A stretch of 64,000 nucleotides of DNA from an uncultured Spirochaetota bacterium (GTDB taxonomy: Bacteria; Spirochaetota; Spirochaetia; SZUA-6; Fen-1364), in contig CAVTHO010000003.1 of the NCBI GenBank assembly GCA_963734545.1, forward strand, positions 128,001 to 192,000, read 5' to 3'. Under the pieces are notes generated by a model. That model saw only the letters and a list, made by a program, of their open reading frames with translations, was not told the origin of the DNA and searched no databases. Within the stretch, counting starts at the first letter, position 1; every line of letters begins with the position of its first letter. Positions 11,152-32,596 of this stretch are shown here, in pieces. The position numbers and the translations under genes were made by a program.

Positions 11152-12462
11152 GTGATGAGAATCGTCCACTATATCAACCAGTTCTTCGCGGGAATCGGGG
11201 GGGAAGAAAAGGGCGGCTCCCCCCTCGAGCACTGCGATGGCCCCAAGGGCCCCGGCGTGGGCCTGCTTCCCCTCATGGGCGGCGAGGCCGAGATCGTGCG
11301 CACGATCTGGTGCGGTGACAACCTGATCAACCAGGAGCAGGAGCGGATCCTCGGTGAGATCGAGAAGCTGATCCGGGAAGTGAAACCCGACGTCGTGGTG
11401 GCCGGCCCGGCCTTCAACGCGGGCCGGTACGGGCTGGCGTGCGGCATGGTGGCGAAGCTGTGCACGGAAAAGCTCGGGATCCCCGCGCTCATCGGGCTGT
11501 TTCCCGAGAATCCCGCTGTCGAGATCTACCGCAAGGACGCCTATATCTATCCCTGCGCGGAGACCGCGGTGGGCATGCGCAAGGACCTGCCTGGCCTGGC
11601 GAAGCTCCTCGTGCGGCTGGCAAAGAACGGGAAGCTCGGGCCCGCGGCAGTGGAAGGTTACCTTCCCCGGGGGTACCGTTACAACGAGATCGTGGCAGCG
11701 AACGCCGCGGTGCGGTCCATCGAAATGCTGAAGAAGCGCCTCAAAGGGGAGAACCCCCTGACCGAGGTGCCCCTGCGGACCTTCGAGAAGGTTCCCCCGG
11801 CCGCGCCGGTGCGCAATCTCCGGGAGGCAACTGTCGCGATCGTTACCGGCGGCGGCATGGTGCCGAAAGGAAACCCGGACAAGCTGAAGCAGGCATTCGC
11901 CGATTCCTTCGGCACGTACTCGATCGCGGGAATGAACGAGCTGCCCGCGGGGGACTTCAAGGGCATTCACGGCGGCTACGACTCGACCTGGGTGGACGAG
12001 GACCCCGACAGGGTCGTTCCCGTCGACGTGCTGCGCGGCCTCGAGAAGGAAGGCAGGTTCAAGCGCCTCCTGAATGAGTACGTGGTGCTGTGCGGCATCG
12101 GCACCAATGTGGCCATGAGCAGGAAGCTCGGCGCCGACATCGCCGAGCAGCTCAAGAGAAGGGAGGTATCGGCCGCCATCTACACCTCCACATGAGGAAC
12201 CTGCACTCGTTGCGTGTCAACGATGCAGAAAGAGGCTGAAAGGGCCGGTATCCCCACAGCCTTGATCACCGCGATACCGTCCGTGGCGAAGTCGGTCGGG
12301 GTGAGCAGGATCATCACCGGAGGCGGCATCCCTTATCCGGTGGGCAACCCCTCCCTGCCCCGGGAGCGCGAGATCGAGTTCAGGAAGCGCCTCGTGGAAA
12401 AGGCGCTCGAGGCTGTCAGCACGGAGGTCAAAGGGCCCACCGTGTTCGATGTGAGCCTGTAG
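11152..12462 (+). CDS. Glycine/sarcosine/betaine reductase-type selenoprotein B (GrdB family), Sec at UGA 12193-12195
   Basis: HYINQFFAGIGGEE, AGPAFNAGRYG, HGGYD; reading through TGA gives TST-U-GTCTRC and joins ORF 12214-12462 in frame. Confidence 0.95.
12201..12228 (+). promoter_or_regulatory. Bacterial SECIS hairpin of the GrdB-family gene
   Basis: CTGCA-C-TCGTTG-[CGTGT]-CAACGA-TGCAG stem-loop starting 6 nt after the UGA. Confidence 0.75.
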
Positions 12463-12474
12463 GCGGAGGGACAG

Positions 12475-13792
12475 ATGAGGCTGGAACGTGGTTACTTCCG
12501 CATCCGCAATCTCCTCTTCGGCGCGGAGACGTCCCTGGCGGACGGCGTGCTCACCGTGAACCGGGACGAGCTCACGCAGCGCGCTGCTGACGGAGGACCA
12601 GAACACCCAGGTCGCGTCCCTCACACTCGAGATCGTGAAGCCGGGTGAGGACGCGCGGATCGTGCACGTGCTGGACACGCTCCAGCCGGGGGTGAAGGTC
12701 GAGCGGGGAGGGCGAGTTCATGCCCGGCCAGCTCTGCGACCCGACGATCGTCGGGAGCGGCGACAACGCACCTGTTCGACAATCTCGCCGTGATGGAGTG
12801 CGCCGAGCTTCCGTGGGCGGGCAAGTCCGCGCTGCTGTACGCGCGGGATGCCATCGTCGACATGGTCGGCCCGGCCGCGGCCTACTCGCCGTTCTCCGAG
12901 ACCTTCAACCTCGTGCTGCGCATGACGATGAAGGACGGGGCAAGCGATGTGGAATACGACGAGATCGGTGCGGCACGCGGGGATCCGCGCGGCGCGATAT
13001 CTCGGCGCGGCTGCTCAAGGACCGCGCGCCCGAGGAGACCGAGACATTCGATTTCACGCGCCGGTGGACCCGAAGCTGCCCCGGGTGGCCTACGTGACCC
13101 AGTGCCAGAACCAGGGCACGTATTCGAACACGTTTCTCTACGGCAAGGAAGTGAGCAACCTCGTGCCCGTCAGCCTATTCGCCCACAGAGGTCATGGACG
13201 GCTGCATCGTGAGCGGCAACTACGTGTGGCCCTGCTTCAAGATTCCGTCCTTTCTCCAGGCGAACCTGCCCGTGGTCATGGAGCTCTCCCGAAGGCACGG
13301 CAAGAACGCTCAATTTCGTCGGCGTGGTCTTCGACAGAGGCCACAACAACTCCCACTTCGAGAAGCAGCGCGTTGCCAACCTGGCCGCCTCGCAGGTGCG
13401 GAGGCTCGGCGCGCAGGGCGTGGTCATTTCCTGGGAAGGCGGCGGCAACGCGGCAACGGACGCGATGCTCACGCTCCAGACCTGTGAGAAGTGGGGCATC
13501 AAGGCAGTGGCGTTCACCTTCGAGTTCGGCGGACCCGACGGCACAGAGGGCGTTCTTCTCGTGGACGACGTGCCCGGAGGCGAAGTACCTCGTGTCCGGC
13601 GGCTCCATCGAGAAGCCCACGCTGATCCCGAAGGTGAAGCGCGTGGCCGGCGGGGACGTGCTTCGGCTGCGCAAGGAAACGGGCGGAGAGCCCGAGCCGG
13701 CCGACGTCGAGCGGACACTGGACAACATCACCCCCTTCTATTGCGGGGGAAACCAGAGCGGAATCGGAAGGCTCGCGGGGGTGGGCTACTGA
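12475..13792 (+). CDS. Reductase component B partner subunit (GrdE/GrdG/GrdI/PrdA family), several frameshifts
   Basis: Fragments MRLERGYFRIRNLLFG, DAIVDMVGPAAAYSPFS, LPRVAYV, MDGCIVSGN, VISWEGGGNAATDAM, LVSGG lie in successive frames. Confidence 0.85.
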
Positions 13793-14959
13793 TGGACACC
13801 TGGGACATCGTGATCATCGGCGCGGGCACGGCGGGGCTCTCCTCCGGAATCTACGGGGCGCGCGCGAAACGCACGACCCTGATCCTGGACAGGAAGCGGC
13901 CCGGCGGCCAGACGGCACGACCGAAAAGATGGAGAACTATCCCGGCTTTCCCGAGGTCATCGGCGGGAGAGAGCTCACCGAGCGCTTCCGCAGGCACGCG
14001 GAGGCCATGGGCGCCCGCATCGAGCGCGGGGAGGCGGTCTCTTTCAGCGAGGACGACGGGGCGTACGTGGTCGGCACCCGAAGGAAGGCGAATCCTGTCG
14101 GGCGCGCAGCCTGATCCTGGCCCCCGGATGCGAGCCGCGCGCGCTGGGCATCCCGGGGGAGAAGGAGTTCGCGGGAAGGGGAGTGTCATCCTGCGCCACC
14201 TGCGACGCGGAGCTGTACGAGGGGGTGCGCGTCGTGGTCGTGGGAAGCGGTGATACGGCAGTCGAAGAGGCGGGCTTCATCAGCAGGTTCGCGGACGAGG
14301 TGGTGATGCTGGTGGTCCATGACGAAGGCACGCTGGACTGCAACCGGACCCAGGCCGAGACCGCGTTCGCGAACCCGAAGATCACGTGGATGTGGAACCG
14401 CTCGATTCTCGCGATCGAGGGAGAGGAGGCGGTGACGGGGGTGCAGGGTGAAGAACCTGCGCACCGAAGCGGAGGAGGCCGTGTCCTGCAGCGGGGTCTT
14501 CATTTTCGTGGGCACCGTGCCGCAGACGGCTTTCCTCGGTGACTTTGTCAGCCTTCGAAACGGCTTCATCGCCACCGACGAGAAGATGGAGACGAACCGG
14601 CCGCGCGTGTTCGCGGCCGGGGATGCCCGGGTCAAGGTGCTGCGCCAGGTGGTCACGGCAGCCTCCGACGGCGCGATCGCCGCGTTCCACGCGGACAAGG
14701 CGCTCACGGAGATCGACGAGTACGGGCGTTCGGTGCAGCGGGCGGGAAAAGAGTACCTCCTGTACTTCTACTCCCCGCCGGTGCAGAGGAGCCTCGACCT
14801 GTTTCCGCGCATGGAGGAAGAAGGCCGAGGCGCTCGGGCCTTCCCCTGATCAAGCTGGACACCTTCCGCTACCGGAGCGTGGCCGCGCGGTGCGGCGTGA
14901 CGGAGGTGCCGTGCCTGGTGCGGATGGAGAATGGTGACATGAAGGAATGCTGCGCTTGA
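13792..14959 (+). CDS. trxB: Thioredoxin reductase with C-terminal extension (frameshifted)
   Basis: DIVIIGAGTAG, ENYPGF, CATCD, VVGSGDTAVEEA, FAAGD..RQVVTAASDGAIAA. Confidence 0.88.
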
Positions 14960-14997
14960 AGCGCGCTCGACCTGAAATGGAAAGGAGGTGAATCAGC

Positions 14998-15459
14998 ATG
15001 CTGGAAGGAAAGAAGATCATTATTCTCGGGGACCGGGACGGGATACCGGGCGGCGCCATCGAGGCGTGCCTCGCGGGGAAAAACGTGGAGATCGTGTTCT
15101 CCACGACCGCGTGCTTTGTCTGAACGAGCGCCGGAGCAATGGACCTGGAGAACCAGAAACGGGTGAAAGCCCTGGCGGAGCAGATCGGCAAGGAGAACAT
15201 CGTCGTCCTCCTTGGCGGCGCCGACGCCGAGGCGAGCGGGCTGATCGCTGAAACGGTGATCGCCGGCGATCCCGCGTATGCAGGTGCATTGACAGGAGTC
15301 CAGTTGGGACTCCCCGCGTATCACATTCTCGAGCCCGAGATCAGGCAGGAGATCGATCCTGCCGTGTACGAAGCGAACATCGCAATGATGGAGATGGTGC
15401 TGTCCGTGGCCGACATCGTGAAAGAGGTGTCGTCCATCAGGAACAAGCTCCTCTCCTGA
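14998..15459 (+). CDS. grdA: Glycine reductase selenoprotein A, Sec at UGA 15121-15123
   Basis: MLEGKKIIILGDRDGIPG...TACFV-U-TSAGAMDLENQKR; CxxU motif in frame with ORF 15139-15459. Confidence 0.95.
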
Positions 15460-15471
15460 CGGAGACGTGAA

Positions 15472-15792
15472 ATGACCGAGCTGGACAAGGACAACTTCGA
15501 CCAGACCGTGCTCGCGCACAAGGGCGTGTACCTGGTCGATTTCTGGAGCGAGACGTGCGAGACATGCCTGGACATGATGCCGCAGATCGAGACACTGGCG
15601 CGCGACCTCGAGGGTCGGGTCGGCTTCGGCAAGGTGAACATCCAGGGAAACAGGCGGCTGGCCATCCGTGAGAAGGTGCTCGGCCTTCCCAATATATCGA
15701 TCTACAAGGACGGGCAGAAGATCACCTCCTTCTCCCAGACATTCACGGCAGACCAGGTGAAGACGGCGGTGGAGGCGCTGATCGGTGGCTGA
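15472..15792 (+). CDS. trxA: Thioredoxin (glycine-reductase-associated type)
   Basis: LVDFWSETCETC CxxC; NRRLAIREKVLGLP resembles grd-cluster thioredoxins. Confidence 0.88.
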   Translation: MTELDKDNFDQTVLAHKGVYLVDFWSETCETCLDMMPQIETLARDLEGRVGFGKVNIQGNRRLAIREKVLGLPNISIYKDGQKITSFSQTFTADQVKTAVEALIGG

Positions 15793-17334
15793 GCCCTTTG
15801 CCGTGGTCACGGCATGCTCCTACAATCTCTTTCCACTGCCCGTTCTTCACCGTGACGCACGGCACGACGCCCGGCGGCAGAGCGCGAGGCCGGTCCGGAT
15901 TCCGATTTTCTCAAGGCGCTTCCGAACCGCCTGCGCAGCTTCGCGGAGGCGAGCAGCTACGCGCCGAACCAGGTGTTCATAGGCAACCTGGATCCCCGGG
16001 ACCTGCCGGCCCGGCCCTGGCATTCGGCGCATACGGCGGGGTCCCGGGCCGAGGGAAGATTCGGCCGGATTCTCCAGGAGAAAAAGCTCTACGCTCTCGT
16101 GAAATTCGCGGACACCTTCGACCTCGTGCACCTCGCGGCCGATTTTCTCGACGAGGCGGCGGAGCTGCTCCGGGCCGACGATGCCCTGGGAGGCGCCGAC
16201 CTGTCTCGATTCAAGAACCCTGTCGACCCGGCCGCGCTCCGTGACGAGCTGGCCGCGGGCGCCCTTCCCCTCGTCAGTGACGGGAAAACACTCGGGTGCA
16301 TCAAGGCGGCGCATCCGCGCGACGTGAACCTCGCCGCGCACACGATGCTGGAGAACCTGAGCTCCAAGGCCACGGCGGTCTACGCGCTGCGCCGGCTCCT
16401 GGCAGACAATCGAATCGATCCGCGGAGCATCGACTACATCATCGAGACTTCCGAGGAGGCCTGCGGGGACATGAACCAGCGGGGCGGCGGCAACTTTGCC
16501 AAGTCCATCGGCGAGCTTGCCGCGCTCTCCAACGCGACGGGGTGCGACGTGCGCTCCTTCTGCGCGGGCCCCGTGCACGGCCTGCTGCAGGCCGCCTCGC
16601 TCATACGGGCCGGCTCCGTCGCAGCGGGTGGTGGTCGTGGCAGGCGGCACCACCGCCAAGCTCGCCATGAACGCGAAGAAACATCTGGAGAAGGGATTTC
16701 CCGTGCTGGAGGACTGCATGGGCTCCTTTGCCGTCTGCTGGAAGGGGGCGCCCCGTCCGGACTGCGCGTGCGCAATGACCTGACCGGGATGCTCCAGCAT
16801 CGGGTCCGGCTCCTCCCCCCAGGCGGTGATGCAGGACCTCGTGGCCGAGCCCCTGTCCCGGGCCGGTCTCCGCTTCTCGGACATCGACTGTCTACGCGCC
16901 CGAGCTCCAGAACCCCGAGATCACGGAGGCAGGCGGGCGCGGGCAACGTGACCCTCGCGAACATGAAGATGATCGCGGCCATGGCGGTCATGAAGAAAGA
17001 GATCGAGAAGCCGGACATGGACGCCTTCATTGCGGCGCACGGCACGTCCGGCTGGGCTCCGACCCAGGGGCATATCCCCTCGGGCATTCCCGCCCTCGGA
17101 TGGTTTCTCGTGTGGGCCCGGGCGGGCTCGCTGCGCCGCGGCATGCTCATCGGCAAAGGCAGCCTCTTCCTCGGACGCATGACCGGTCTTTTCGACGGGG
17201 TGTCGATTCTCCTGGAGGCAGGCCCTCAGGCCCGCGAGGAATCGGCGGCCGGGCAGAGCATGCGCGCGCAGCCGGCACGGCAGGCCGGAGCGCAGCCGGC
17301 GCCTGCAGGGGGCGGCCCCTGCGGATCGGCCTGA
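15785..17334 (+). CDS. grdC: Glycine reductase component C beta subunit (frameshifted; probably fused to GrdD)
   Basis: APNQVFIGN, SEEACGDMNQRGGGNFAK, RSFCAGP, WAPTQGHIPSG, GKGSLFLGRMTGLFDGVS. Confidence 0.9.
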
Positions 17335-18394
17335 CGATTCCCGGCTCGGAGAGCGGATACGCGGAGCTCAAACGCGGTGCCGAAGAGGCGCGCGCTCTCG
17401 AGCCCGACATCGAGCCTGTCCTCTTCGGGGAAGAAGGCGGGGACCCGGCTGCGGCGCACCGCGACATGGAGAAGGCGCTTGCAGAGGGCGCAATCCAGGC
17501 CGCGATCACTTTCCATTATCCGTTTCCCATCGGCGTGGCGACCGTCGGCCACATGAAGGCGCCGGGAAACGGAAATGACCTTTTCATCGCCACGACTACG
17601 GGCGCCTCCTCCTCCGACCGGGTGGAGGCGCTCGTGAAAAACGCCATTGCCGGCAACGCCGTCGCAAAGACGTTCGGAATCGCCCGGCCGAGCCTCGGGT
17701 TCCTCAACCTGGACGGGGCCGCGCGCGCCTTGAGCGTGATGCGGGACCTGGAGGCAGGCGGTTACCCGGTCAACCTGGTTCCGTCCATGCGGGGAGACGC
17801 CCTGCTCCGGGGGAACGACATCCTTGCCGGGACAGCGGATGTCCTGGTGTGCGATTCCCTCACAGGGAACGCGATCGTGAAGCTGCTCTCCGCGTTCTCG
17901 ACCGGCGGCAGGATCGAGACTGCCGGCAGCGGCTACGGACCCGGTGTCGGCGAAGGGGCGCCCCTGGTAGGGATCATCTCCCGGGCCACGGCCGGTCCAG
18001 TCGTTGCAGCCGCCATGGCGCTCATGGCCGGAATGGTCCGCGGAGGCCTCCGCACGGTGTACGGGGAGGAGGCGGCCCGGGCGGAAAAGGCGGGGCTTGC
18101 CGGGCTGCTTCGCACATTACGGCAGAAGTCCGCTGTTCGGGAACCCGCCTCCGCGCCGACGGCACCTGCTGCGGCGCGCCTGCTGCGGCCGCACCGGCCG
18201 GGCCCGCGAAGAAGGTCGTGCATCACGAGATCGAGGGCATCGATGTCCTCGAGATCCAGGACGCGGTGAGTCTCCTGCTCGCCGCGGGCATCTACTGCGA
18301 GCCGGCCATGGGCTGCACCGGTCCCGTCGTGCTCGTATCCGCGGAGGACGCGGACGCGGCAGCGGGGCGCCTGAGGGCAGCCCGATTCATATAG
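17313..18394 (+). CDS. grdD: Glycine reductase component C alpha subunit (PlsX-like; frameshift near 18190)
   Basis: IGLTIPGSESG, HYPFPIGVATVG, RGNDIL, GYGPG, and catalytic AMGCTGP at the C-terminus. Confidence 0.9.
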
Positions 18395-18480: not shown

Positions 18481-19315
18481 ATGCAGTACCGCGCCGTACA
18501 AACCGTTGAAGAGGCCCTCACGCTGCTCGGCTCCGCGGAAAACGTGAGGCCCATCGCGGGCGGAACCGATCTCAGCGTGGTCATTGCCGACGGTCTTGTC
18601 GAGCCGGAGATGCTGCTTGACGTCAGCGCCATTCCCGCTCTGTGCGGGATCCGCCGGTCGGCGCAGGGGCTCGCAATCGGCGCGGCCGTCACCATCGCCG
18701 AGATCGCCTCGCGGAGTGACCTTCCCGCGTGCCTGGTGCAGGGCGCGCGCTCCATCGGCTCGCCCCAGATCCGGAACCTCGCCACCATCGGGGGCAATAT
18801 CTGCAACGCATCCCCCTGCGGGGACACGCTTGCGCCCCTCGTGGCGCTCGACGCCTCGTTCGTTCTCGCCTCGGCGGCAGGCCCGCGCACGGTCCCTGCC
18901 GAAGAGTTCTTCCTCGGCCCGAAGAAGACGGTGCTGCGGCGCGGCGAGCTTCTCGTGGAGATACGCATCGGCGCGCCATGCCTGGCAGGCAGGTCGGCGT
19001 TCCGGATGATCGGCAAGAGGAACGGACAGGCAATCTCGCAGGTCAATGCCGCCGTGTGGCTCGCCCTGCAGGAGGGACGCATCGGAGAAGCCAGGGCAGC
19101 GGTCGGCTCGGTGGCGCCGGTGCCGCTGCGGCTGCGGGAGACCGAGAAGCTCCTGAGGGGGAGTGATCCGACCGGGCATCGAAATCCGGAAAGTCCTGGA
19201 ATGCGTGGACCGCGAGATCGCGCCCATCAGCGACGTCCGCGCGAGCGTGGAATACCGCAGGCTCGTCACGGGAGCGCTCTTTCGGGAGGCGCTTCTCGAG
19301 GCGCTGGCAGGCTGA
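18481..19315 (+). CDS. Xanthine dehydrogenase family FAD-binding subunit (frameshift near 19180)
   Basis: AGGTDL, IGSPQIRNLATIGGNICNASP; shifted tail PISDVRASVEYR. Confidence 0.9.
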
Positions 19316-19325
19316 GGGAGGGGCA

Positions 19326-19787
19326 ATGCGCATCGAGTTCACCTGCAACGGACAGAATGTGGCCGTGGACGCGGAGCCCGACATGCGGGTGCTCGATCTG
19401 CTGCGGGACATCCTCGGTCTCACGGGGACCAAGGAGGGCTGCGGCAGGGGAGAATGCGGCGCGTGCACGATCCTGCTGGATGATGCGCCGGTAAATGCGT
19501 GCCTCCTGTACGCGGCAAAGCTGCAGGGCCGGTCCGTGGAGACGATCGAAGGGATTGCCCGGCAGGATGGAGAGCTGCACCCGATCCAGGAAGCGTTCCT
19601 CGATGAGGGCGCGGTACAGTGCGGATACTGCACCCCCGGAATGGTCCTCAGCACGAAAGCTCTATTAATGAAGAATCCGACACCGGATGTCGCGGACATC
19701 GAAGAGGCGCTGAGCGGCAACTTCTGCCGGTGCACGGGCTACGGGAAGATCGTGCGGGCGGTGCAGAGGGCGAGCGGCACGCCATGA
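19326..19787 (+). CDS. Xanthine dehydrogenase family [2Fe-2S] subunit
   Basis: GTKEGCGRGECGAC, QCGYCTPG, NFCRCTGY. Confidence 0.95.
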   Translation: MRIEFTCNGQNVAVDAEPDMRVLDLLRDILGLTGTKEGCGRGECGACTILLDDAPVNACLLYAAKLQGRSVETIEGIARQDGELHPIQEAFLDEGAVQCGYCTPGMVLSTKALLMKNPTPDVADIEEALSGNFCRCTGYGKIVRAVQRASGTP

Positions 19788-22059
19788 GCAGCGAAAAACT
19801 GCATGTGGTCGGCGCGCGCGTGCGAAAGGTCGACGGCCGTGAGCTCGTGACGGGCCGGGCGAGGTTTGCCGGGGACATGAAGCTGCCCGGGCATGCTGCA
19901 CGGGTGTGCCGTCCGGTCGAATGTCCCGGCCGGCACGATCACCCGCGTCGACACGCGCGCAGCAATGCAGCAGCCCGATGTCCTCGCCGTGCTGACGGGC
20001 GGGGACATACCGGGGCCGAACATGATCGGGATCCTTCCGCCCTTCGACCAGCCCGTCCTGGCAACCGAGGTAATCCGCTACGCCGGAGAGTCTGTTGCGC
20101 TCGTCGTTGCCCGGACCCACGGCGCGGCCAGGAAAGCAGCGCGCCTGGTGAAGCTCGAGATCGAGCCGCTGGAGCCGCTCCTCACGATAGACGCGGCGCT
20201 GAAGGAAGGCGCCCGCAGGATACATGAGAAGGGCAATGTGACCTGCCGCGAGAATCTCGTGAAGGGGGACGTGGAGAAAGGTTTTCGGGAGGCTGACCTC
20301 GTGGTGGAGGGCACATTCGAGACCTCCCACCAGGAGCACGGATACATCGAGCCCGAGGCGGCCCTTGCCGTGCCGGTGCCGGGCGGGCGGGTCACCGTGT
20401 ACGCATCCTGCCAGTCCCCGTTCCACCTGCGCGGTCACATCGCGGCCAATCTCGCCATCCCCGCGGCGCGAGTCAGGGTCGTGCAGGCGTACACCGGCGG
20501 CTCCTTCGGCGGCAAGGATGACGTGGCCACGGAGATCGGGATCCTGGCCGCGGTGGCCGCGCGCAGGCTCGACAGGCCCGTCATGATCGCGCACGAGCGG
20601 GAGGAGTCGATCATCGGATCCAACCTGCGGCACGCCTCGCGCATCCACATCGCCACGGCGGCGAGGAAGGACGGGACCATCGTCGCCCGCCGGATAGAGG
20701 TGCTCCTTGACGGCGGCGCATACGCCTCTGAAAGCCCTTTTGTGACGACGAAAACCCTGGTGCACGCGGCGGGGCCGTACCTGATCCCGAACGTGCTCGT
20801 GCGAGTCCACCGCGGTCTACACGAACAAGACCTACTGCGGCGCGTGCCGGGGCTTCGGCGTGCCCCAGGTCACGTTCGCCTCAGAATCGAACATGGACGA
20901 GCTTGCGCTGAAGCTCGGCATCGATCCCCTTGAGCTGCGCCTGAAGAACGCCTTGAAACCGGGAGATGCAACGGCCACGGGGCAGACCTACGACCGGTCC
21001 GTGGGCCTCGTGGACACGATGCGCGCAATCGAGGCCCGCAGGCGCGAGCTCGTGCTCCCCCGCGCGCGGTGACGACCAGTGGCTCTATGGCCGCGGCGTT
21101 GCCTGCCTGCTCCAGGGCATCTCCAACGGCGCCGAAGGCGTGGACGTGGTGGGCGCGAGCGTGCAGGTCTCCCAGGACGGGAGCGCGCTCGTGAGCGTGG
21201 GGCTTGCCGACATGGGGCAGGGGGCGCGCACCGTGTGCACCCAGATCGTGTCCGAGATCCTCGGCATCTCCCTCTCGAAGATCACGGCCGGGCAGGTGGA
21301 CACGGACCTTGTGCACGACTCGGGGCCCACGGTCGCCTCGCGCAACACCACGGTGGGCGGCATGGCGGTACAGATGGCGGCTGCCGAGGTGAAGAAGTCC
21401 CTCGTCGTCCATGGCCGCCCGGATGTTCAAGGTCGAGGAATCGCTGGTCCTTTTGCAGCGACGATTTCGCGGTTCTTTCGGTCGACCGGAATGCCCGCAT
21501 TCCACTGAAAGACGTGGCCACTGCCGCCTACTGGACGGGGTATCCCCTCATGCACCTCGCTTTCTCCAAGGCGCCGGATGCGGTGTTCGACCACGAGACC
21601 CACCAGGGCAGCGTCTATATCGCCTACAATTTCGGCACTCACCTCATCGATCTGCGGATCGACCGGCACACGGGAAAGGTGGAAGTGCTGCGACACCTGG
21701 CCTGTCACGACGTGGGGAAGGTGATCAACCCGCTGGGTCTGGAAGGCCAGATCGAGGGAGGCTCCCTGTTCGGGTTCGGGCTGGCGCACATGGAAGAGGT
21801 GCTGTTCCGCGACGGCCGTGTGCTGAATGCCAATTTCGCGGACTACGCGCTGCCCTCGATCAAGGACCGGCTTCCGACCGAGGCGATGACGGTGGAAGAC
21901 TTCAATCCGACCGGCCCCTTCGGCGCCAAGGGCGTGGGGGAGCCGCCCGTGGCAGGGGCGGCAGCGGCTTTCGCCAATGCGGTGGCGGATGCCACGGGCA
22001 TCCGTTTCAGGAGACTGCCCATCACGCGGCAGGAGATACTCCTGGGGCTCAGGAGGTAG
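19784..22059 (+). CDS. Xanthine dehydrogenase/aldehyde oxidoreductase family molybdopterin subunit (about 4 frameshifts)
   Basis: QEHGYIEP, GGSFGGK, RGFGVPQ, MGQG, VASR, GQIEGG, GAKGVGEPP across ORFs 19893, 20860, 20966, 21079. Confidence 0.9.
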
Positions 22060-24713: not shown

Positions 24714-25730
24714 ATGAAGAAGAGACTCGTGTGTGTCGTGGTCGCGGTCTTCAGCATCATGCTGGCGGCGCCGCTGTTCGCGGCGCCGGTCAGCCTCGCC
24801 ATCTTCGTCCCGGGCGTGGCGGCGGGCAGCCCCCTGTACGAGCAGATGGTAAGCGGCGCGCAGAAGGCGGCCGCGGAGTATCCCGACATGACCCTGAAGG
24901 TCGTGGAGGCCGGGTTCAACCAGGCGGAATGGCCCGAAAAGATGACGTCCCTCGCGGCAACGGGTGAGTACACCTACATCCTCACCTCGAACCCGTCGAT
25001 GCCCTTCATCTGCGCGGACGTGGCAAAGAGCTTCCCGCAGCAGAAGTTCATCGTGATGGACGGCTACCTTCCTCCCGGCAATCCGCAGTTCTACACCCTG
25101 ATGTACAACCAGGTGGAGCAGGGCTACTTCGCCGGCTACCTCGCGGGGCTCGTGACCAAGAGCAAAATGAAGGGCGCGACGCCGGACCTGAAGGTGGGCG
25201 CGATCGTGGCGCAGGAATACCCGGCGCTCACCAAGGAGATGATTCCCGGCTACACGCAGGGCTTCAAGGCGGTGGACCCGAAGATCACCCTCGACTACCG
25301 GGTGGTCGGCAACTGGTATGACGCCAACAAGGGCGCCGACCTGGCGAACAGCATGATGGATGCCGGCGTGGACGTGATCCTCGCGATCGCCGGCGGGGCG
25401 GGGCAGGGCATCATCAAGGCGGCGCAGGAGCGCGGGCGCTACGTCGTGTACTTCGACAGCAACGCGTACGCGATCGCCCCGGGGACGATCGTCGGGTGCG
25501 CGACGCTGGACCAGAACCGGGCCGTCTACGAGACCCTGAAGAAGGCCCTGCAGGGGACGCTCGCTTTCGGCACGGCCGACGTGGTGAACGCCAAGGCGGG
25601 GTACGTGGATTTCGCGGACAACGACCCGCTGTACACGAAGAATGTCCCGGCGGACGTGCGCGCAAAGATGACGGATCTCATGAAGAAGTTCCGCTGCGGC
25701 GCCATGAGCCTTCCGGTTCCCCCGATGTAG
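24714..25730 (+). CDS. BMP-family ABC substrate-binding protein resembling riboflavin-binding RfuA
   Basis: Signal peptide; AIFVPG..SPLY, EAGFNQAEW, SNP, YNQVEQ, RVVGNWYDANK, DPLY segments match my recollection of Treponema RfuA (TP0298); needs alignment. Confidence 0.8.
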   Translation: MKKRLVCVVVAVFSIMLAAPLFAAPVSLAIFVPGVAAGSPLYEQMVSGAQKAAAEYPDMTLKVVEAGFNQAEWPEKMTSLAATGEYTYILTSNPSMPFICADVAKSFPQQKFIVMDGYLPPGNPQFYTLMYNQVEQGYFAGYLAGLVTKSKMKGATPDLKVGAIVAQEYPALTKEMIPGYTQGFKAVDPKITLDYRVVGNWYDANKGADLANSMMDAGVDVILAIAGGAGQGIIKAAQERGRYVVYFDSNAYAIAPGTIVGCATLDQNRAVYETLKKALQGTLAFGTADVVNAKAGYVDFADNDPLYTKNVPADVRAKMTDLMKKFRCGAMSLPVPPM

Positions 25731-25794
25731 AGAGGACGATTCCGATCGTGCGGGGGAGCAATCCCCCGCACGCTCCGGAACGCGCGAGGGACTG

Positions 25795-27349
25795 ATGCCG
25801 TACCTGGAGATGCGGGGCATATCGAAGCTCTACCCGAATGACCTTCTGGCCAACGATGCCATCGATTTCTCCGTGGAGAAGAACGAGATCCATGCCATCG
25901 TCGGCGAGAACGGAGCGGGCAAGACGACTCTCATGAAGATCCTCTACGGCCTGGAGCAGCCGGATGCGGGCTCCCTCACGCTCGCAGGGAACCCGGTCAC
26001 GATCCGCAGCCCCCTGGACGCCAACCGGCTCGGGATCGGCATGGTCCACCAGCATTTCAAGCTCATCCCGGAGTTCACGGTCGCGGAGAACGTCGTTCTG
26101 GGCATCGAGCCGCGAAAGAACCTCCTGTTCGTGGACAGAAGCGCCGCCGCGGAGCGCATCCGCGAAGTGATTGCGAGCCACGGGTTCAGCATCGATCCGC
26201 GCGCGCGCGTGCTGAACCTGACCGTCGGCCAGATGCAGCAGGTGGAGATCGTCAAGATGCTCTACCGCAGGGCGGACCTCCTCATCCTGGACGAGCCCAC
26301 CTCGGTGCTCACCGAGCAGGAGATCCACAAGCTCTTCGAGACCCTGCGCAGCCTCCAGAGGAACGGGAAGACCTGCATCATCATCACGCACAAGCTGCAG
26401 GAGGTGATGGAGATCTCGGACCGGGTCACCGTGATGCGCAAGGGGAAGGTCGTCGCCGTCCGGGAGACCGCGGAAGTGGACAAGGCGGAGCTGTCACGCC
26501 TCATGGTCGGCAAGAGCGTGCTCTTCCAGTTCGAGCGGGCCAGGAAGGCGTGCGGGGACGCCGTGCTCGAGCTGGTGGACGTGACCCTGAAGCAGCGCGG
26601 CAGGGACCGGGCGCTCCTGGACGGGATCAACCTCACGGTCCGCTCGTGCGAGATAGTCGGGGTGGCGGGGGTCAGCGGAAACGGGCTCGGCGAGCTGGAG
26701 GACGCGGTGGCGGGCCTGCGCCGGATCACCAGCGGAAGGATCCTTCACAATGGGGAGGACATCTGCCGGTCTTTCTCCTGCCACGCTGCGCGAGCGGGGG
26801 TTCGCGTACGTCCCCGCCGACAGGCTGCGGCGCGGCTCGAGCCTCCAGTCCACGGTCACGGAAAACATGATCGTGACCAGCCACCACCGTTTCCTTCGGG
26901 CGGGGTTCCTCAAGGGGGGAAAGATCCAGCAATTCGCGGAACGCCTGACAAAAAGCTTTTCGATCGACGGGGCCCCCCGGGCGCCCATCGGTACTCTTTC
27001 GGGCGGCAACATCCAGAAGGTGATCCTCGCGCGCGAGCTCGCCACTGCCTCCAATCTCGTCATCGTGTCCGAGCCCACGTGGGGGCTGGACGTGGCGAGC
27101 AGCCAGTTCGTCTACGAGAAGATCCTGGAGATGCGCAAGGGGGGTGCCGGGATTCTCTTCATCTCCTCCAACCTCGACGAGATACTCGGCATCGCGGACA
27201 GCATCGCGGTGATGTACCGGGGCCGGGTCGTCGCGTTCCTGCCGAATGTCCCGGACCTCACCAAGGAGCGGATCGGGGAATACATGCTGGGTCTGCGGGA
27301 CGATTTCGCCCCCGAGGGCGGCCCGCAGAAGAAGGATGCGCAGCCGTGA
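25795..27349 (+). CDS. ABC transporter tandem ATPase (CUT2/nucleoside type, RfuB-like; frameshift near 26765)
   Basis: GENGAGKTT, ILDEPT, second domain LSGGNIQK. Confidence 0.92.
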
Positions 27350-28392
27350 AGGAAAAGAGGAATCTCGGCGCGCTGTTCACCGGGTTCACCGGCCTGGCGC
27401 TCACGCTCCTGCTCTCGTTCGGGCTGGTCATCGGGCTCGTCTTCCTGCTCAGCAGGACGCCGGGCCGCACCCTCTACTACTTCTTCGTCGGCGCGTTCAC
27501 CAACAAGTACTACCTGGGAAACATGCTGAACGTCGCCGTTCCGCTCGTCTTCACCGGCCTCGGGATCTCTGTTGCGTTCAAGTCGTCCGTGTTCAACCTC
27601 GGGGGTGAGGGGCAGATCTACGCCGGGGGCCTTGCCGCCACGGCCGTCTGCCTGGCCCTGCCCGCGGCCAATGGCTACCTCGGCGGGTTCACCGCGCTGG
27701 CGGGGGCAGTGGTGCTTTCCGGGGGCATCGCCGGATTGTCGGGGTTTTTCCGGATGAAGTGGAACACGGATGAAATGATCTCCTCGTTCCTCCTCTCCTC
27801 CGCGGTCGTCCTCGTCGTGAACTATTTCATCACGGGCCCCCTCGACGACCCGAAGAACAATCTCCTTGCCACGCTGGCCATCGGACCGCAGTACGGGCTC
27901 CTGAGGATATTCCCTCCGTCGAAGCTCAATGTCAGCGCCTTCTTCGCCCTTGCGGCGGCCCTGGCAGTGTTTTTCTTCATGTACAAGAGCCACGCGGGAT
28001 ACGAGATGCGGATGTGCGGGCTCAACCGCGAGTTTTCCCGCTACGGCGGCATCAACGTGTCCAAGTACCTCGTGCTTCCCATGATCATGAGCGGCGCCCT
28101 GCACGGGCTGGGGGGAGGCCTCATGGTGCTCGGCACCTACGGGGCGACGATCGAGGGCTACTCCTTCGGCATGGGCTGGAACGGGATCGCCGTGGCGCTC
28201 ATTGCGAAGAACAACCCGCTCGGCGTGATCCCCGCCGCATTCCTGTTCGCCTATCTCGACGCCGGGGCAAAGGCCGCGATGCTCAACTCGGACGTCACGT
28301 TCGAGATCGCGGCGATCGCCCAGTCGTTCATATTCTATTTCGTGACCGCGCAGGCCCTCTACGGCTTGACGCGAAGGCGGAGAAGGGCATGA
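27346..28392 (+). CDS. ABC transporter permease (RfuC-like)
   Basis: FNLGGEGQ, GWNGIAVALIA, multiple TM helices; GTGA overlap with ATPase stop. Confidence 0.9.
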   Translation: MKEKRNLGALFTGFTGLALTLLLSFGLVIGLVFLLSRTPGRTLYYFFVGAFTNKYYLGNMLNVAVPLVFTGLGISVAFKSSVFNLGGEGQIYAGGLAATAVCLALPAANGYLGGFTALAGAVVLSGGIAGLSGFFRMKWNTDEMISSFLLSSAVVLVVNYFITGPLDDPKNNLLATLAIGPQYGLLRIFPPSKLNVSAFFALAAALAVFFFMYKSHAGYEMRMCGLNREFSRYGGINVSKYLVLPMIMSGALHGLGGGLMVLGTYGATIEGYSFGMGWNGIAVALIAKNNPLGVIPAAFLFAYLDAGAKAAMLNSDVTFEIAAIAQSFIFYFVTAQALYGLTRRRRRA

Positions 28393-29300
28393 GCGGCAAC
28401 TCTCCGTTCTCCATTCCCCTCATCCACAACGCGGTGGACATCATGACGCCGTTCCTGCTCGCCGGGATCGGCGGGCTCTTCACGGAGCTGGCCGGGATGC
28501 TGAACATCGCGCTCGAAGGGCTCATCCTGACCGGAGCCTTCTTCAGCATCGTGTTCGCGGCCGCCACCGGCAACCTGCTCCTGGGGATCCTCCTCGGGAT
28601 CCTGTGCGCAATGGCGCTTGCCTGGATGTTCGGGGCCGTCACCCTGTACATGCGGGCCAACGTCTTCATCACCGGTCTCGCCACGAATCTCTTCGCGTCC
28701 GGGTTCACCATCGTGCTCGCTTTCCAGCTCTTCAAGACAAAAGGGGTCATCCAGTTCCCGGGGATTCCGAAGCTTCCCGCCCTCGTTGTTCCCCCGTTTC
28801 TCCAGAAAATACCGGTGGTGGGAGATGTCCTCTTCGGGCACAACGTGATCGTCTACCTCACCTGGGCCATCGTGCTGCTGTCCGCCCTGGTCATCTACCG
28901 TACGCCGTTCGGGCTTCGACTCCGCGGCACCGGTCTGAATTCCGCCACGGTCGTGTCTCTCGGTCTCAATCCCAAACGCTACCAGATGGCCGGCATCCTG
29001 ATCTCCGGCCTGACCTGCGGCCTGGCCGGCGCCATGCTCACCATCGAGCTGGCAGCATTCGTGCCCGAGATATCCTCGGGCCGGGGATGGATCGCCCTGG
29101 TGGCCATCTATCTGGGCAACAAGACGCCGTGGGGGATCTTCATCGCTTCGTTCGTGTTCGGCCTGGCGGAGAGTTTTTCGAACTACGCCCAGGGCGCCAT
29201 CAAGGTGCCGGTGGACTTCATCCTGGCCCTGCCGTACGTCATCACGGTGGTCGCAATGATCATCTATTCCATGTTCCGCCATTTCCGCTCGCGGGGATGA
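28389..29300 (+). CDS. ABC transporter permease (RfuD-like)
   Basis: GMLNIALEG, GRGWIAL, ALPYVIT. Confidence 0.9.
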   Translation: MSGNSPFSIPLIHNAVDIMTPFLLAGIGGLFTELAGMLNIALEGLILTGAFFSIVFAAATGNLLLGILLGILCAMALAWMFGAVTLYMRANVFITGLATNLFASGFTIVLAFQLFKTKGVIQFPGIPKLPALVVPPFLQKIPVVGDVLFGHNVIVYLTWAIVLLSALVIYRTPFGLRLRGTGLNSATVVSLGLNPKRYQMAGILISGLTCGLAGAMLTIELAAFVPEISSGRGWIALVAIYLGNKTPWGIFIASFVFGLAESFSNYAQGAIKVPVDFILALPYVITVVAMIIYSMFRHFRSRG

Positions 29301-29333
29301 GGCGGCCGACAGCCGAGTGAGAGGAGCTACGAT

Positions 29334-30360
29334 ATGAAAGCAGCCGTCCTGACCGCGCCGGAGAAGATCGAGATACAGGACATCGAGAAGCCGGTCCTCA
29401 AGGGGAACGAGATCCTCGTGAAGCTGAAGAACTGCGGCATCTGCACCCTCGAGCAGAGGCTCTACACGGGGGCGGTCAAGATCCGGTTCCCCATCGTTCC
29501 CGGACACGAGGCATCCGGGGAGGTCGTCCAGGTCGGCAGCGAGGTGAACTCCGACATCGCCGTCGGGACCCGCGTGGCGCTCGACCTCGTCCTGCGCTGC
29601 GGCGAATGCTACTACTGCCGCACCGGGCAGTCGAACATGTGCCTGAACCGGTTCAAGAAGGACGCGAAGGTGCTCGGCGGCTTCGGGGAGTACGTCGCCG
29701 TGGCCGCGACCCAGGTATTCCCCATCCCTGCCTCGCTCTCATTCGAGGAGGCCGCCTTTGCCGAGCCGCTTTCCTGCTGCGTCCGCTCGCTCAAGAAAAT
29801 CGGGCTGCACCTGGCGGAAGACCTCCTCATCATCGGGGCGGGACCCATGGGGCAGATGCACCTGCAGGTGGCCCTCTGCATGGGGGCCCGGGTATTCGTC
29901 TCGGATCCTGATACATCCCGCCTGGCCATGGCGAAGAGGCTGGGCGCATTCGCCGCAATCGACCCCGGCAGCATGGATCTCATCGGCATCATCAAGGAGC
30001 ACACGGAGGGCCGCGGCGTGGACGCGTGCGTCATCACGAGCGCCGCGCACGTTGCCCTCAACACGGCGTTCGAGTCGATCTGCAAGAACGGGCGGGTGAA
30101 CATCTACACCTCCTACACGGACAAGCCGTCGATTCCCGTCGACGCGAATACCCTTCACCGGACCGAACAGACCATCACCGGGCAGCGAGGGAAGGACGGA
30201 GCAGGATTTCCTCCAGGCGGTGCGCCTCCTCTCCTTCGGAAAGGTGGACGTGAAGCCGCTCATCAGCGGCACGGTGGGGTACCCGCAGCTGGTGAGCGGC
30301 ATCCTGGCAGCGATGACGCCGAAAACCTACCGGGTGCTCCTGGAACACGAAGGCGGCTGA
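29334..30360 (+). CDS. Zn-dependent polyol/alcohol dehydrogenase (frameshift near 30181)
   Basis: CGIC, GHE, CGECYYC..C, GAGPMG; true C-terminus GSEGRTEQDF..ends TGA 30360. Confidence 0.88.
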
Positions 30361-31805
30361 TGATACTTGCAGTCGACGTGGGGACCTCGGTCCTCAAGGG
30401 GGGGCTGTTCGACAGGCACGGTGAACCCCGGTCCCGCGCCGAATCGCCCCTCGAGCTCCTGGCGCATCCCGATCCGCTGTGGCACGAATCCGACGCGAGG
30501 GAGTGGGTCACCGCGCTCCGTCTGGTCACGCGTCGTCTCCGCCTGTCCCATGCCGGTCCGCTCGATGCCGTCGTGGTGAGCGGCAATGGCCCGACCCTGC
30601 TCCCCGTCGGCGCGGACGGGATGCCGTTGACGCCCGCGATGACGTGGATGGACAGGCGGGGCGTGGCAGAGGCCGGAATCATCTCCGAGAAGAGCGGCCT
30701 GCCGACGGACCCCACCTTCTATCTTCCCAAGGCGTTCTGGCTGTACCGGAATCGACCGGACGTGTACGAGAAGACCCGCTGGTTCTTCTCGTGTCCCGAG
30801 TTCATCGCGTACACGCTCACCGGGGAGGCGGTCACCTTCCTCCCGACTCCGCAGTACACGCGCCTGATCTGGGAGGAGAAGCTGATCCGTGATCTCGGCA
30901 TGGCGCCGGAGAAGTTTCCGCCCTTTATCCGGTCCGGCAAGGTGCTGGGCAGGGTGAGCGCGGCGGGAGAGAAAGCCACGGGAATACCCGCCGGCGTTCC
31001 GGTCGTGGCGGGAGGGCCCGACTTTCTCGTCTCCCTTCTGGGCACGGCCACTGTCCTGCCGGGCCGGGCGTGCATCAGGTCCGGCACGTCGGAGGGCATC
31101 AACCTCTGCTCCCGCATCCCGACCGCGGATCGGCGGCTCCTGTGCTTCAGTCACATTGCGGAGGGTTTCTACAACGTTTCCGGCATGATCTCGACGTCGG
31201 GCAAGGCACTCGAGTGGCTCAAGGACACGATCGGCAGGTCCGCGGACAGCTACGAGAGGGTCTTCGAAGACATCGAGCAGGTGCCGCCCGGGGCCGACAG
31301 CCTCCTGTTTCTCCCCTACCTGGCCGGAGAGAGGGCGCCGCTCTGGGACCCCTGCGCGCGCGGCGCCTTCATCGGGCTCACTCTGAATCATCACGGCCGC
31401 GAGATGACGCGCGCCGTGGTCGAATCAGTGGCGTACGCGATCCGCGACGTGGTCGAGGTCATGGAGGATTGCGGGCAGTCCGTGCAGGACCTGCGCATCA
31501 CGGGCAACCCTTCGCGGAGCCGTCTCTGGAACCAGATCAAGGCGGACGTGACGGGACGGCGCATCCTCGTCCCCGTGCTGCAGGATTCGGATCTCGCCGG
31601 CGACGTGTGCCTCGCGCTGCATGCCCTGGGCGAATACGAATCCGCCGCCGCCGCCTCCGAGGCCATCGTGAAGATGGGAATGGTCTTCGAGCCGAACGCG
31701 GAGAACAAGGGCCTGTACGATGATATGTTCCGCCTCTACCGCGAATCCTACACCGGTCTCCGCGCAGTGTTTCAAAAACTTTCGAGCCTCAGGAGCACAC
31801 CATGA
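30360..31805 (+). CDS. FGGY-family carbohydrate kinase (xylulo/ribulokinase-like)
   Basis: LAVDVGTS, WMDRR, GGPD, SGTS, LPYLAGERAP. Confidence 0.9.
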   Translation: MILAVDVGTSVLKGGLFDRHGEPRSRAESPLELLAHPDPLWHESDAREWVTALRLVTRRLRLSHAGPLDAVVVSGNGPTLLPVGADGMPLTPAMTWMDRRGVAEAGIISEKSGLPTDPTFYLPKAFWLYRNRPDVYEKTRWFFSCPEFIAYTLTGEAVTFLPTPQYTRLIWEEKLIRDLGMAPEKFPPFIRSGKVLGRVSAAGEKATGIPAGVPVVAGGPDFLVSLLGTATVLPGRACIRSGTSEGINLCSRIPTADRRLLCFSHIAEGFYNVSGMISTSGKALEWLKDTIGRSADSYERVFEDIEQVPPGADSLLFLPYLAGERAPLWDPCARGAFIGLTLNHHGREMTRAVVESVAYAIRDVVEVMEDCGQSVQDLRITGNPSRSRLWNQIKADVTGRRILVPVLQDSDLAGDVCLALHALGEYESAAAASEAIVKMGMVFEPNAENKGLYDDMFRLYRESYTGLRAVFQKLSSLRSTP

Positions 31806-32596
31806 CAGTCGGCAAGAGCATCAGAGAGTCGTCCCTCTTCAGGCGCGCCACGGGCAGGACCGTCATCGTGGCCCTCGATCACGGCGGCATCGCGGGCCCC
31901 ATCGCGGGAATCGAGCGGCCCGCCGAGGTCGTCCGGGCCTGCCGCGAGGGAGGCGCGGACGCGATCCTCGCCACGCGCGGCGTGGTGACGGCCTCCCAGG
32001 GTGAATGGGACCGGAGCATGTCCGTCATCCTCCGCCTCACCGGAGGATTCACCGTGCTGGGAGGCAAGTTCGAGGAGGAGCTCATCTCGAGCCCCGAGGC
32101 GGCGCTCTCTCTCGGCGCGGCGGGCGTGGCGGTCACGGTGAAGTTCGGCCACGAGCGGGAAGGGGAGTTCGCGCGGCAGGCTTCCCTCGTGGCGGACAGC
32201 TGCGAGCGATGGGGACTGCCCCTGATGATCGAGGCCATGGCAAAGAGCAAGGACATGAAGGCGAGCGACCCGCGGGGCGTCCTGCTCGCGTCCCGCGCCG
32301 CGCAGGAGATCGGGGCGGACATCGTGAAGACCTGGTACACGGGAGACCCCGAGAGCTTCCGCCGCGTCGTGGAAGGCTGTCCCGTGCCCATCGTGATCCT
32401 CGGGGGGGAAAAGTCGGAAACGCTCGAGGCGGTCTTCAGTGACGTGTACGGCGCCCTGCAGGCCGGCGCAAAGGGGATCGCGATCGGGCGCAACATCTGG
32501 CAGCACGGCAAGACCCGGGAAATGGTGGAGGCCATGGTCGGTCTCGTGCACGAGAGCTGGACGGTGAAGCAGGCGCTGCACCACCTGGGCGGCTGA
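31802..32596 (+). CDS. Class I DhnA/LsrF-family aldolase
   Basis: VALDHG, GADIVKTWYTG (Schiff-base Lys), GRNIWQ. Confidence 0.9.
   Translation: MTVGKSIRESSLFRRATGRTVIVALDHGGIAGPIAGIERPAEVVRACREGGADAILATRGVVTASQGEWDRSMSVILRLTGGFTVLGGKFEEELISSPEAALSLGAAGVAVTVKFGHEREGEFARQASLVADSCERWGLPLMIEAMAKSKDMKASDPRGVLLASRAAQEIGADIVKTWYTGDPESFRRVVEGCPVPIVILGGEKSETLEAVFSDVYGALQAGAKGIAIGRNIWQHGKTREMVEAMVGLVHESWTVKQALHHLGG

Follow-up and report, generated by a model that had tools for sequence, protein, structure and literature searches.

We analyzed a glycine-reductase-type operon in a 64,000-nucleotide stretch of DNA from an uncultured Spirochaetota bacterium (the window). Its alpha subunit gene encodes a PF09338 protein that reads SGNY where GrdE and GrdG read SGNC, and the Tyr is authentic and conserved. 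Judged by sequence comparison, this alpha subunit is not GrdE, GrdG, GrdI or FarE. It is a spirochaete relative of the FinHI reductase, which probably removes the last two-carbon stub of vitamin B2 without oxygen. We consider the chance about even that the SGNY enzyme is a pyruvoyl-independent reductase that cleaves 10-carboxymethylflavin to lumichrome and acetyl phosphate.

From position 13194, the window DNA reads ATG GAC GGC TGC ATC GTG AGC GGC AAC TAC GTG TGG CCC TGC. This frame translates as M D G C I V S G N Y V W P C, which is exactly the string MDGCIVSGNYVWPC of the preliminary description. The ATG at 13194 is real, but it is an internal Met and not the start of the gene, as in-frame pieces precede it from 12475. 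Frame changes near 13166 and 13305 bound the 46-codon in-frame piece that carries the motif. In a MAFFT alignment, the Tyr falls in the column of the SGNC Cys of two Cys-type representatives and of Peptoclostridium acidaminophilum GrdG, for which we used the annotated protein from the 808-kb replicon.

The adjoining 93-aa piece matched 120 proteins; most have 436 aa, and they come from metagenomes and from genomes of Spirochaetota and Bacillota. The site residue is Tyr in 114 of them and Leu in three; the other three are fragments that do not cover the site. We also viewed 80 loci from species-representative genomes (18 of spirochaete type, 62 other) with up to 10 kb of context. At these loci the residue is Tyr in 77, Leu in two and Phe in one, and all 18 spirochaete-type loci read SGNYVWP. 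The preliminary description had stated that the pyruvoyl-forming Cys is lacking, and codon, alignment and homologs bear this out. It had also warned that TAC lies one base from TGC in an error-prone assembly. With such a sequencing error, the protein would be an ordinary GrdE/GrdG proprotein. The assembly is indeed error-prone nearby, and the warning was right for indels, of which the alpha gene has nine. It was wrong for the TAC codon. The nearby errors are indels, P0002 (a 436-aa homolog) scores 268.7 bits on the GrdG model against a cut-off of 780, and Cys was found in 0/80 loci and 0/117 homologs that cover the site. With Tyr so prevalent in both sets, a single-base TGC to TAC error is excluded, and we regard the proprotein explanation as hardly credible.

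Since no Cys, Ser or Thr stands at the processing site, self-cleavage to a pyruvoyl group is not expected. The alpha subunit is thus predicted to remain unprocessed at SGNY, as a single chain of ~47 kDa. An AlphaFold model had a mean pLDDT of 83.5 and a pTM of 0.86. The Tyr lies in a loop of middling model confidence, so this model is uninformative on mechanism. A Foldseek comparison of the model with the PDB gave no match at E ≤ 0.001 (best TM-score 0.21), and a PDB sequence search with P0002 gave none at E ≤ 0.01.

To place the site within its family, we searched 1.84 billion representatives with HMMER, which gave 939 relatives at E ≤ 0.001, of which 233 reach E ≤ 1e-30. An alignment of 140 rows was made from 126 of the 150 representatives listed (those of 380–470 aa) and 14 close homologs. 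The site residue is Tyr in 71 rows, Phe in 15, Leu in 8, Cys, His and Asn in 6 each, a gap in 6, Trp in 5, and others in the rest. A single clade holds five of the six Cys rows, which are also the top GrdG-model scorers among the representatives (412–631 bits). P. acidaminophilum GrdG belongs to this clade as well, as does an SGNC-bearing Photobacterium protein. Row P0141, the sixth with Cys, falls outside it, and how it aligns at the site is doubtful. Within PF09338, a pyruvoyl-forming Cys is thus exceptional. As Tyr is the commonest residue, the missing Cys alone says little on substrate, and the special standing that the preliminary description gave to it was overstated. Most PF09338 clades are without a known substrate.

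Trees were built with FastTree on 140 and 145 rows and with IQ-TREE, using Shimodaira-Hasegawa-like approximate likelihood ratio test (SH-aLRT) support. The window-type clade consists of P0002, P0006, P0044, P0055 and P0064 (SH-aLRT 100%). The Fin-type clade has nine rows (100%) and includes Muricomes intestini DSM 29489 (L080) and Treponema putidum ATCC 700334 (L063). Window type, Fin type and a Bacillota pair (P0076/P0078) together make a 16-row clade at 99%, which FastTree also recovered. The window type is a sister subclade to the Fin type and is not nested within it. P0002 is 48.3% identical to M. intestini FinI. Over P0002 residues 320–420, FinI matches at 20–22 of every 30 positions, versus 2–13 of 30 for GrdG. 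The clade assignment was made through the M. intestini alpha subunit; the beta subunits were compared by tblastn alone (47% identity).

The window system has the Pfam families PF09338 and PF07355 and the partner proteins in common with GrdE/GrdG systems, and its alpha subunit is ~35% identical to P. acidaminophilum GrdG. However, both window subunits fall far below the curated scores. The GrdG match of P0002 spans residues 1–390 and stays under the cut-off, and GrdE/GrdG identity was rejected. The beta subunit matches the NCBIfam model various_sel_PB over its full length with 467.7 bits (cut-off 65). It scores below the curated cut-offs of GrdF (471, cut-off 800), GrdB (434, cut-off 602) and GrdH (405.4, cut-off 775). 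The control pair from P. acidaminophilum passed with 859 bits for GrdG and 858 bits for GrdF.

Betaine reductase (GrdI/GrdH, known from P. acidaminophilum) is a mechanistic parallel, as its alpha subunit likewise lacks the processing Cys and the enzyme uses GrdA, GrdC/D and thioredoxin. As the GrdI reference we used the alpha subunit of Enterococcus gilvus pCR1A, which is defined by its PGAP-named grdH neighbor alone. This gene lies between grdD and grdH with a BCCT transporter behind, and it reads SGSF at the site. The betaine-reductase-type cluster on pCR1A (a 919-kb megaplasmid, L083) is complete and runs trxB, trx, grdA, grdC, grdD, alpha, grdH, BCCT transporter, and it directly follows a trans-4-hydroxy-L-proline dehydratase gene. 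A GrdI reference was also sought on the P. acidaminophilum 808-kb replicon, where both matching places were grdG. The cluster names of 10 representatives beside the Cys clade were generic or read "glycine/sarcosine reductase". No GrdI- or GrdE-named NCBIfam model was among the matches, in which the alpha models were GrdG, FarE, PrdA and PrdD.

That the window alpha subunit is a GrdI ortholog is very improbable. In its favor, the available text of PMC10838667 describes GrdI as also being without the processing Cys, and the E. gilvus protein agrees with this. On the trees, however, the E. gilvus protein groups with P0255 (a 1259-member cluster) and P0263 at 99%, as sister to the Cys-containing GrdE/G clade; this GrdI-type clade has SGSF at the site. 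These groups together make up 10 rows (100%), and a 97% branch separates them from the window's clade. Clustering with this GrdI-type protein was seen with neither FastTree nor IQ-TREE. The window beta subunit fails the GrdH model and scores lower on it than P. acidaminophilum GrdF does (571 bits). The gene order is beta-then-alpha in the window and in 78/80 loci, whereas E. gilvus has alpha-then-beta followed by the transporter. As the window alpha subunit does not group with the GrdI-type protein, the analogy with betaine reductase is mechanistic only.

FarE, of the fluoroacetate reductase FarE/FarB of Cloacibacillus porcorum, is like the window alpha subunit in its missing cysteine. According to the available text of PMC10838667, which cites Bednarski 2001, FarE lacks two conserved cysteines, is not a proprotein and is "similar to" GrdI. 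The same text agrees with the background given in the preliminary description, in which GrdE is processed and GrdI is not. FarE was rejected on model score, since P0002 reaches 150.4 bits against a FarE cut-off of 675. None of the 107 representatives scanned (of 126) approached that cut-off, and FarE was set apart by this score, with no FarE on the trees. FarB is reported in that text to be without a CxxC after the selenocysteine (Sec), whereas the window beta subunit keeps U-xx-C-xx-C.

The Fin system was named in a 2026 study (J Bacteriol, PMC13492142). In its available text, Clostridium scindens converts riboflavin to lumichrome anaerobically and finA-K are induced. The genes include finB (RibF), finC (aldolase), finD (alcohol dehydrogenase), finG (aldehyde dehydrogenase) and finHI (homologs of glycine/betaine/sarcosine reductase). 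In the authors' proposal, a triose is released by finBCD and the two-carbon remnant is taken off by finHI. In Faecalicatena fissicatena, which is without finGHI, conversion stops at hydroxyethylflavin. M. intestini is named as a long-form carrier. As presented in that text, Fin function rests on transcript induction and comparative genomics, the survey covers Lachnospiraceae and Bacteroidales only, and the words pyruvoyl, selenocysteine, selenium and carboxymethyl do not occur. No paper that joins lumichrome with glycine reductase, selenoprotein B, GrdB or Stickland was among the literature matches listed.

The gene set around Fin-type relatives of the window pair is the fin neighborhood of that study. 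In six Fin-type loci examined with Pfam, the recurring products are a class I aldolase (DeoC/LacD type), a Zn-dependent alcohol dehydrogenase, a regulator of SorC type, an APC permease, a flavokinase/FAD synthetase resembling RibF, an aldehyde dehydrogenase and the beta and alpha subunits, often with an iron alcohol dehydrogenase. FinG is present in 50 of the 62 non-spirochaete-type loci, FinB in 35, FinD in 34 and FinC in 33, with FinB, FinC and FinD together in 32. A FinC-like aldolase directly precedes the beta gene in L020, from the intermediate Bacillota group. Hosts include Christensenellaceae, Oscillospiraceae, Clostridiaceae metagenome-assembled genomes (MAGs), Lutispora, Alkaliphilus peptidifermentans and oral Treponema putidum (L063). 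L021 and L052 are further such loci. A Cloacimonadota MAG (L054) has the aldehyde dehydrogenase, the permease and the reductase pair, with no FinB, FinC or FinD match within reach.

The window pair resembles FinHI in its place in the 99% clade of the M. intestini pair, in the order beta then alpha, and in having the TGA followed by GTCTRC, the SGNYVWP.FK loop and the clade-specific C-terminal region. A FinD-like dehydrogenase and a FinC-like class I aldolase lie about 16–19 kb downstream of the window reductase. In contrast to fin loci, the window has an FGGY kinase fused to the dehydrogenase and no RibF-like kinase, FinG or SorC regulator. An RfuABCD importer stands in place of the APC permease, and GrdA, GrdC/D and the thioredoxin system are encoded in the same operon.

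That operon runs beta, alpha, trxB, grdA, trxA, grdC, grdD. It encodes together all parts of a glycine-reductase-type complex: GrdA with CxxU, GrdC/GrdD, TrxA/TrxB and a Sec-containing beta subunit. The in-frame TGA of the beta gene is read as selenocysteine in the context TST-U-GTCTRC. An in-frame TGA followed by GTCTRC is kept in 78/78 beta genes readable there, and the beta gene lies directly 5' of alpha in 78/80 loci, that is, wherever a beta gene was found. GrdC and GrdD fall just under their cut-offs of 450 and 350 bits, consistent with their frameshifts. Selenocysteine machinery is encoded on the minus strand at 33706–37987, beside the island: SelA and then SelB match in one long open reading frame (either fused or joined by loss of a stop), and SelD comes next.

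Further downstream lies a riboflavin importer string. The protein at 24714–25730 matched PDB 4IIL with E 1e-82 and 281 bits by phmmer (query 25–335 to chain 32–345). The next best match was the nucleoside-binding PnrA (2FQW) with 62.5 bits. 4IIL is T. pallidum TP0298, described in the available text of PMC3573665 as the riboflavin-binding RfuA of the RfuABCD importer. By this match, the window protein is an RfuA ortholog. M. intestini FinD, like the window dehydrogenase, scores best against Tdh (163.2 bits), and M. intestini FinC scores 220.2 bits on PRK07226. The dehydrogenase and aldolase of the window thus match the same NCBIfam models in the same rank as FinD and FinC. By tblastn, the dehydrogenase-kinase shows 75% identity to L019 and 37–42% to the gene at the FinD position of 35 other loci. 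The aldolase is 32–40% identical to the FinC position in 34 loci. The genes for RfuA, RfuBCD, the dehydrogenase-kinase, the aldolase and a major facilitator superfamily (MFS) transporter form one tightly packed string on the same strand. In L019, whose alpha subunit is 80% identical to P0002, grdD, rfuA, rfuBCD and the dehydrogenase gene directly continue the grd operon. The L019 sequence stops within the dehydrogenase gene, and the fusion to the kinase is read from the window. Two open reading frames of the window string are long: one runs from the ABC ATPase into a permease (25795–28392, 865 aa) and the other is the dehydrogenase-kinase (823 aa). As the ATPase and permeases are separate in L019, the 865-aa frame may be an assembly artefact.

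Table. Coordinates of the reductase operon and of associated features in the window.
Feature	Positions	Strand	Evidence or remark
Beta subunit, selenoprotein B family, FinH-like, intact	11152..12462	+	PF07355 428 bits; in-frame TGA 12193-12195
Alpha subunit of substrate-specific protein B, PF09338, FinI-like, SGNY type	12475..13792	+	436 codons over 9 frameshifts
SGNY motif, Tyr codon TAC 13221-13223	13212..13223	+	aligns with Cys of Asn-Cys self-cleavage site in GrdG
Thioredoxin reductase trxB	13792..14849	+	NCBIfam TRX_reduct on both ends; frame changes 13912, 14082, 14444, 14742
grdA, selenoprotein A	14998..15459	+	reduct_selen_A 170.7 bits (cut-off 130); TGA 15121-15123 in CFVU
Thioredoxin trxA	15472..15792	+	NCBIfam ThioredTrxAClost 117.6 bits
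grdC and grdD, protein C, acetyl-phosphate-forming part	15973..18269	+	reduct_C_beta 432.6, reduct_C_alpha 313.9 bits; ~6 frameshifts
Xdh/aldehyde-oxidoreductase-family molybdenum enzyme, FAD, Fe-S and Mo subunits, frameshifted	18481..21508	+	NCBIfam matches
RfuABCD-type ABC importer	24714..29320	+	binding protein 24714-25730, then ATPase and permease genes
Zn-dependent alcohol dehydrogenase (FinD-like) fused to FGGY-family kinase	29334..31805	+	Tdh 161.9 bits; XylB 240, below cut-off
DhnA-type class I aldolase (FinC-like)	31802..32596	+	PRK07226 248.5 bits; start overlaps preceding stop
MFS transporter, end of packed string	32598..33740	+	NCBIfam TsgA-like 82.9 bits

From these genes we infer the following route, in which the substrate is taken from gene context and the lack of processing and every chemical step are likewise inferred. 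Riboflavin would enter via RfuABCD. Its ribityl chain would be oxidized and phosphorylated by the dehydrogenase-kinase fusion, and the class I aldolase would split the chain into a triose phosphate and 10-formylmethylflavin. The aldehyde would then be converted to 10-carboxymethylflavin. No FinG-type dehydrogenase is present here, and the Xdh-type enzyme is a candidate for this step, since the Xdh family includes aldehyde oxidoreductases. The alpha subunit would work with the upstream Sec beta subunit and the downstream GrdA, GrdC/D, thioredoxin and thioredoxin reductase. In the SGNY enzyme, selenium would attack the CH2 of the carboxymethyl group, and the alloxazine ring would leave as lumichrome. 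The carboxymethyl group would pass to GrdA and be released as acetyl phosphate, yielding ATP.

The pyruvoyl carbonyl of glycine and sarcosine reductase condenses with the substrate amine to an imine, so that selenium can displace the nitrogen from C-alpha. With betaine no carbonyl is required, as trimethylamine is readily lost. N10-carboxymethyl isoalloxazine would carry an excellent leaving group, as its departure gives the aromatic alloxazine lumichrome. The leaving alloxazine is a stabilized heteroaromatic nitrogen, so a Schiff base would not be needed. The role of the leaving group, played by trimethylamine in betaine reductase and by fluoride in fluoroacetate reductase, is proposed to fall to lumichrome here. 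The preliminary description had inferred that no Schiff base forms. This is reasonable. A Cys-derived pyruvoyl cannot form at the site, though the missing Cys alone is a weak guide to the substrate. Its guess of a flavin substrate fits the importer, dehydrogenase, kinase and aldolase genes of the window as well as the fin neighborhood of the relatives, and is likewise drawn from context. The frequent FinG beside Fin-type pairs fits an oxidation in which 10-formylmethylflavin becomes 10-carboxymethylflavin, and a Grd-type enzyme would require this acid form. The window and Fin types have the SGNYVWP loop and the C-terminal 100 residues in common, and GrdG does not share them, which argues for a related substrate pocket. 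The Tyr might stack against the flavin, or it might protonate the leaving nitrogen.

Several observations weigh against a flavin substrate. The finHI step is only a proposal in the available text of PMC13492142, and the flavin-cleaving role of family members is a prediction. No FinB (RibF-like) or FinG aldehyde dehydrogenase match was found in the window at E ≤ 1e-3. FinB, FinC, FinE, FinG and the SorC regulator occur within 10 kb in 0/18 spirochaete-type loci. Among the 62 other loci, nine have no Fin gene within reach, at least four of them on short contigs (L044, L049, L062 and L074). The Fin-like genes of the window lie 16–19 kb downstream of the reductase and are only 32–42% identical to their counterparts. 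The window type is only 47–51% identical to Fin-type alpha subunits, a distance that could hide a change of substrate, given that GrdG and a GrdE/G-type representative are 59% identical. The immediate neighbors are also different. The region upstream (3853–11139) encodes a GntR regulator, a lyase resembling DapA that narrowly passes the dapA cut-off, a HyuA/B fusion of the hydantoinase family (~1275 aa), an opine-dehydrogenase-like (OpDH-like) protein and an ornithine carbamoyltransferase-like (OTC-like) protein near threshold (272.5 vs 280.85). Of the spirochaete-type loci, 13/18 have an OTC-like gene and 11/18 an OpDH-like gene immediately upstream of beta. Downstream, at 18481–24646, genes for an SsnA-like aminohydrolase and a PreA-like dihydropyrimidine dehydrogenase accompany the Xdh trio, which follows grdD in 10/18 of these loci. 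These downstream Xdh/SsnA/PreA genes look like purine or pyrimidine catabolism.

The spirochaete subclade could therefore hold the same kind of pyruvoyl-independent reductase with another X-CH2-COOH substrate, tied to the carbamoyltransferase, the OpDH-like protein, the hydantoinase, the lyase or the Xdh/SsnA/PreA group. Such a compound could be an amino acid with an N-carbamoyl or N-carboxymethyl group, or an N-carboxymethyl heterocycle derived from the breakdown of purines or pteridines. Besides the points above, Xdh/SsnA/PreA genes also flank Fin-type pairs, on their upstream side, in 3–4 of the 62 other loci, from Bacillota MAGs (L022, L023, L041 and L081). We consider another substrate possible but rather unlikely. 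Three loci (L004, L005 and L019) have alpha subunits as close to P0002 (80–81%) as those of cassette-bearing loci, yet OpDH and OTC are absent and the GntR regulator abuts the beta gene, which shows the cassette to be dispensable. The SGNYVWP.FK[IV]P loop and the C-terminal 100 residues are those of the Fin type, the riboflavin importer and Fin-like genes are present in the window and adjoin the operon in L019, and the neighbors point to no definite candidate compound. We place the flavin substrate ahead of a different one for the spirochaete subclade.

The nine frameshifts also mean that the alpha gene may be non-functional in this genome. PF09338 and NCBIfam GrdG matches chain along short in-frame pieces from 12475 to ~13590. 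PF09338 matches six of the seven in-frame alpha pieces, and the last piece has no Pfam or NCBIfam match. Standard tblastn had merged the gene into one wrong-frame alignment, and P0002 was used as the guide for a frameshift-aware alignment. In this alignment 364/436 residues are identical, with frame changes near 12583, 12701, 12762, 12964, 13004, 13059, 13166, 13305 and 13573, no in-frame stop, and a stop codon at 13790–13792. Eight of the changes are single extra bases and one is a two-base skip. Counted per gene with L003 orthologs as guides, there are nine frame changes in alpha, four in trxB, ~6 in grdC/D, ~3 in the Xdh FAD and Fe-S genes and four in the Xdh Mo subunit. The DapA-, OpDH-, OTC- and GrdB-like genes directly upstream have none inside genes. 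The indel-rich stretch spans 12460–21510 (~9 kb) with ~26 frame changes, mostly single extra bases, and the 8 kb upstream have none inside genes.

Because the frame changes are clustered, they are not uniform sequencing noise, and the alpha, trxB, grdC/D and Xdh genes could be decaying pseudogenes with the motif as a relic. We consider this unlikely. The corrected alpha frame has no in-frame stop, and its identity to the L003 ortholog (371/458) is in line with that of the intact neighbors (beta 298/387 and 84/89, OTC 301/364, OpDH 326/381). The genes grdA and trxA are intact within the stretch. Eight of the nine alpha changes add one base, a pattern closer to unpolished long-read sequence than to decay, since bacterial gene decay tends toward deletions and raw long reads tend toward insertions. 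We read the stretch as unpolished sequence over gene decay.

The recurrence of Xdh, SsnA and PreA beside the reductase may be more than a chance neighborhood. These genes may form a separate purine or pyrimidine module, supply the aldehyde-oxidizing step, or act on the ring product. In a wider reading, the 30-kb island would be a complete anaerobic, selenium-dependent riboflavin-to-energy route in free-living spirochaetes, including ring opening. Stickland-like reductive C-N cleavage would give acetyl phosphate and lumichrome, and the Xdh-type, SsnA, PreA-like, HyuA/B and OTC-like proteins would open the alloxazine pyrimidine ring and harvest carbamoyl phosphate. On the same view, the Tyr-type PF09338 clades (71/140 rows) would represent a large and as yet untapped group of pyruvoyl-independent reductases that act on X-CH2-COOH compounds whose leaving groups are good. 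We hold this wider reading to be improbable. Elsewhere in the window, 54000–58500 has a G+C content of ~0.37–0.58 at all codon positions, versus ~0.8 at third positions in other parts, and may be foreign or non-coding. At 48064–49620 there is a 519-aa ankyrin-repeat protein, whose matches to Legionella Ank effector models are repeat-driven and below cut-offs.

Cys-less alpha subunits (GrdI, FarE) were already known, and FinHI was named in 2026; the window system is a differently wired spirochaete variant. Fin-type systems reach well beyond Lachnospiraceae, and this variant occurs in environmental spirochaetes. Anaerobic removal of the side chain of vitamin B2 was open until the 2026 paper, which in its available text names the fin genes and not the mechanism of the last step. 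The conserved SGNY and in-frame TGA give that step a concrete chemistry absent from the same text. Lumichrome and related catabolites are reported, in the available texts of PMC13492142 and PMC12650265, to act on MR1 and MAIT (mucosal-associated invariant T) cells of the host, so knowing the producing genes and their expected selenium need has practical reach. If the proposed function is true, selenium would displace a heteroaromatic leaving group without a Schiff base, and the energy would be kept as acetyl phosphate.

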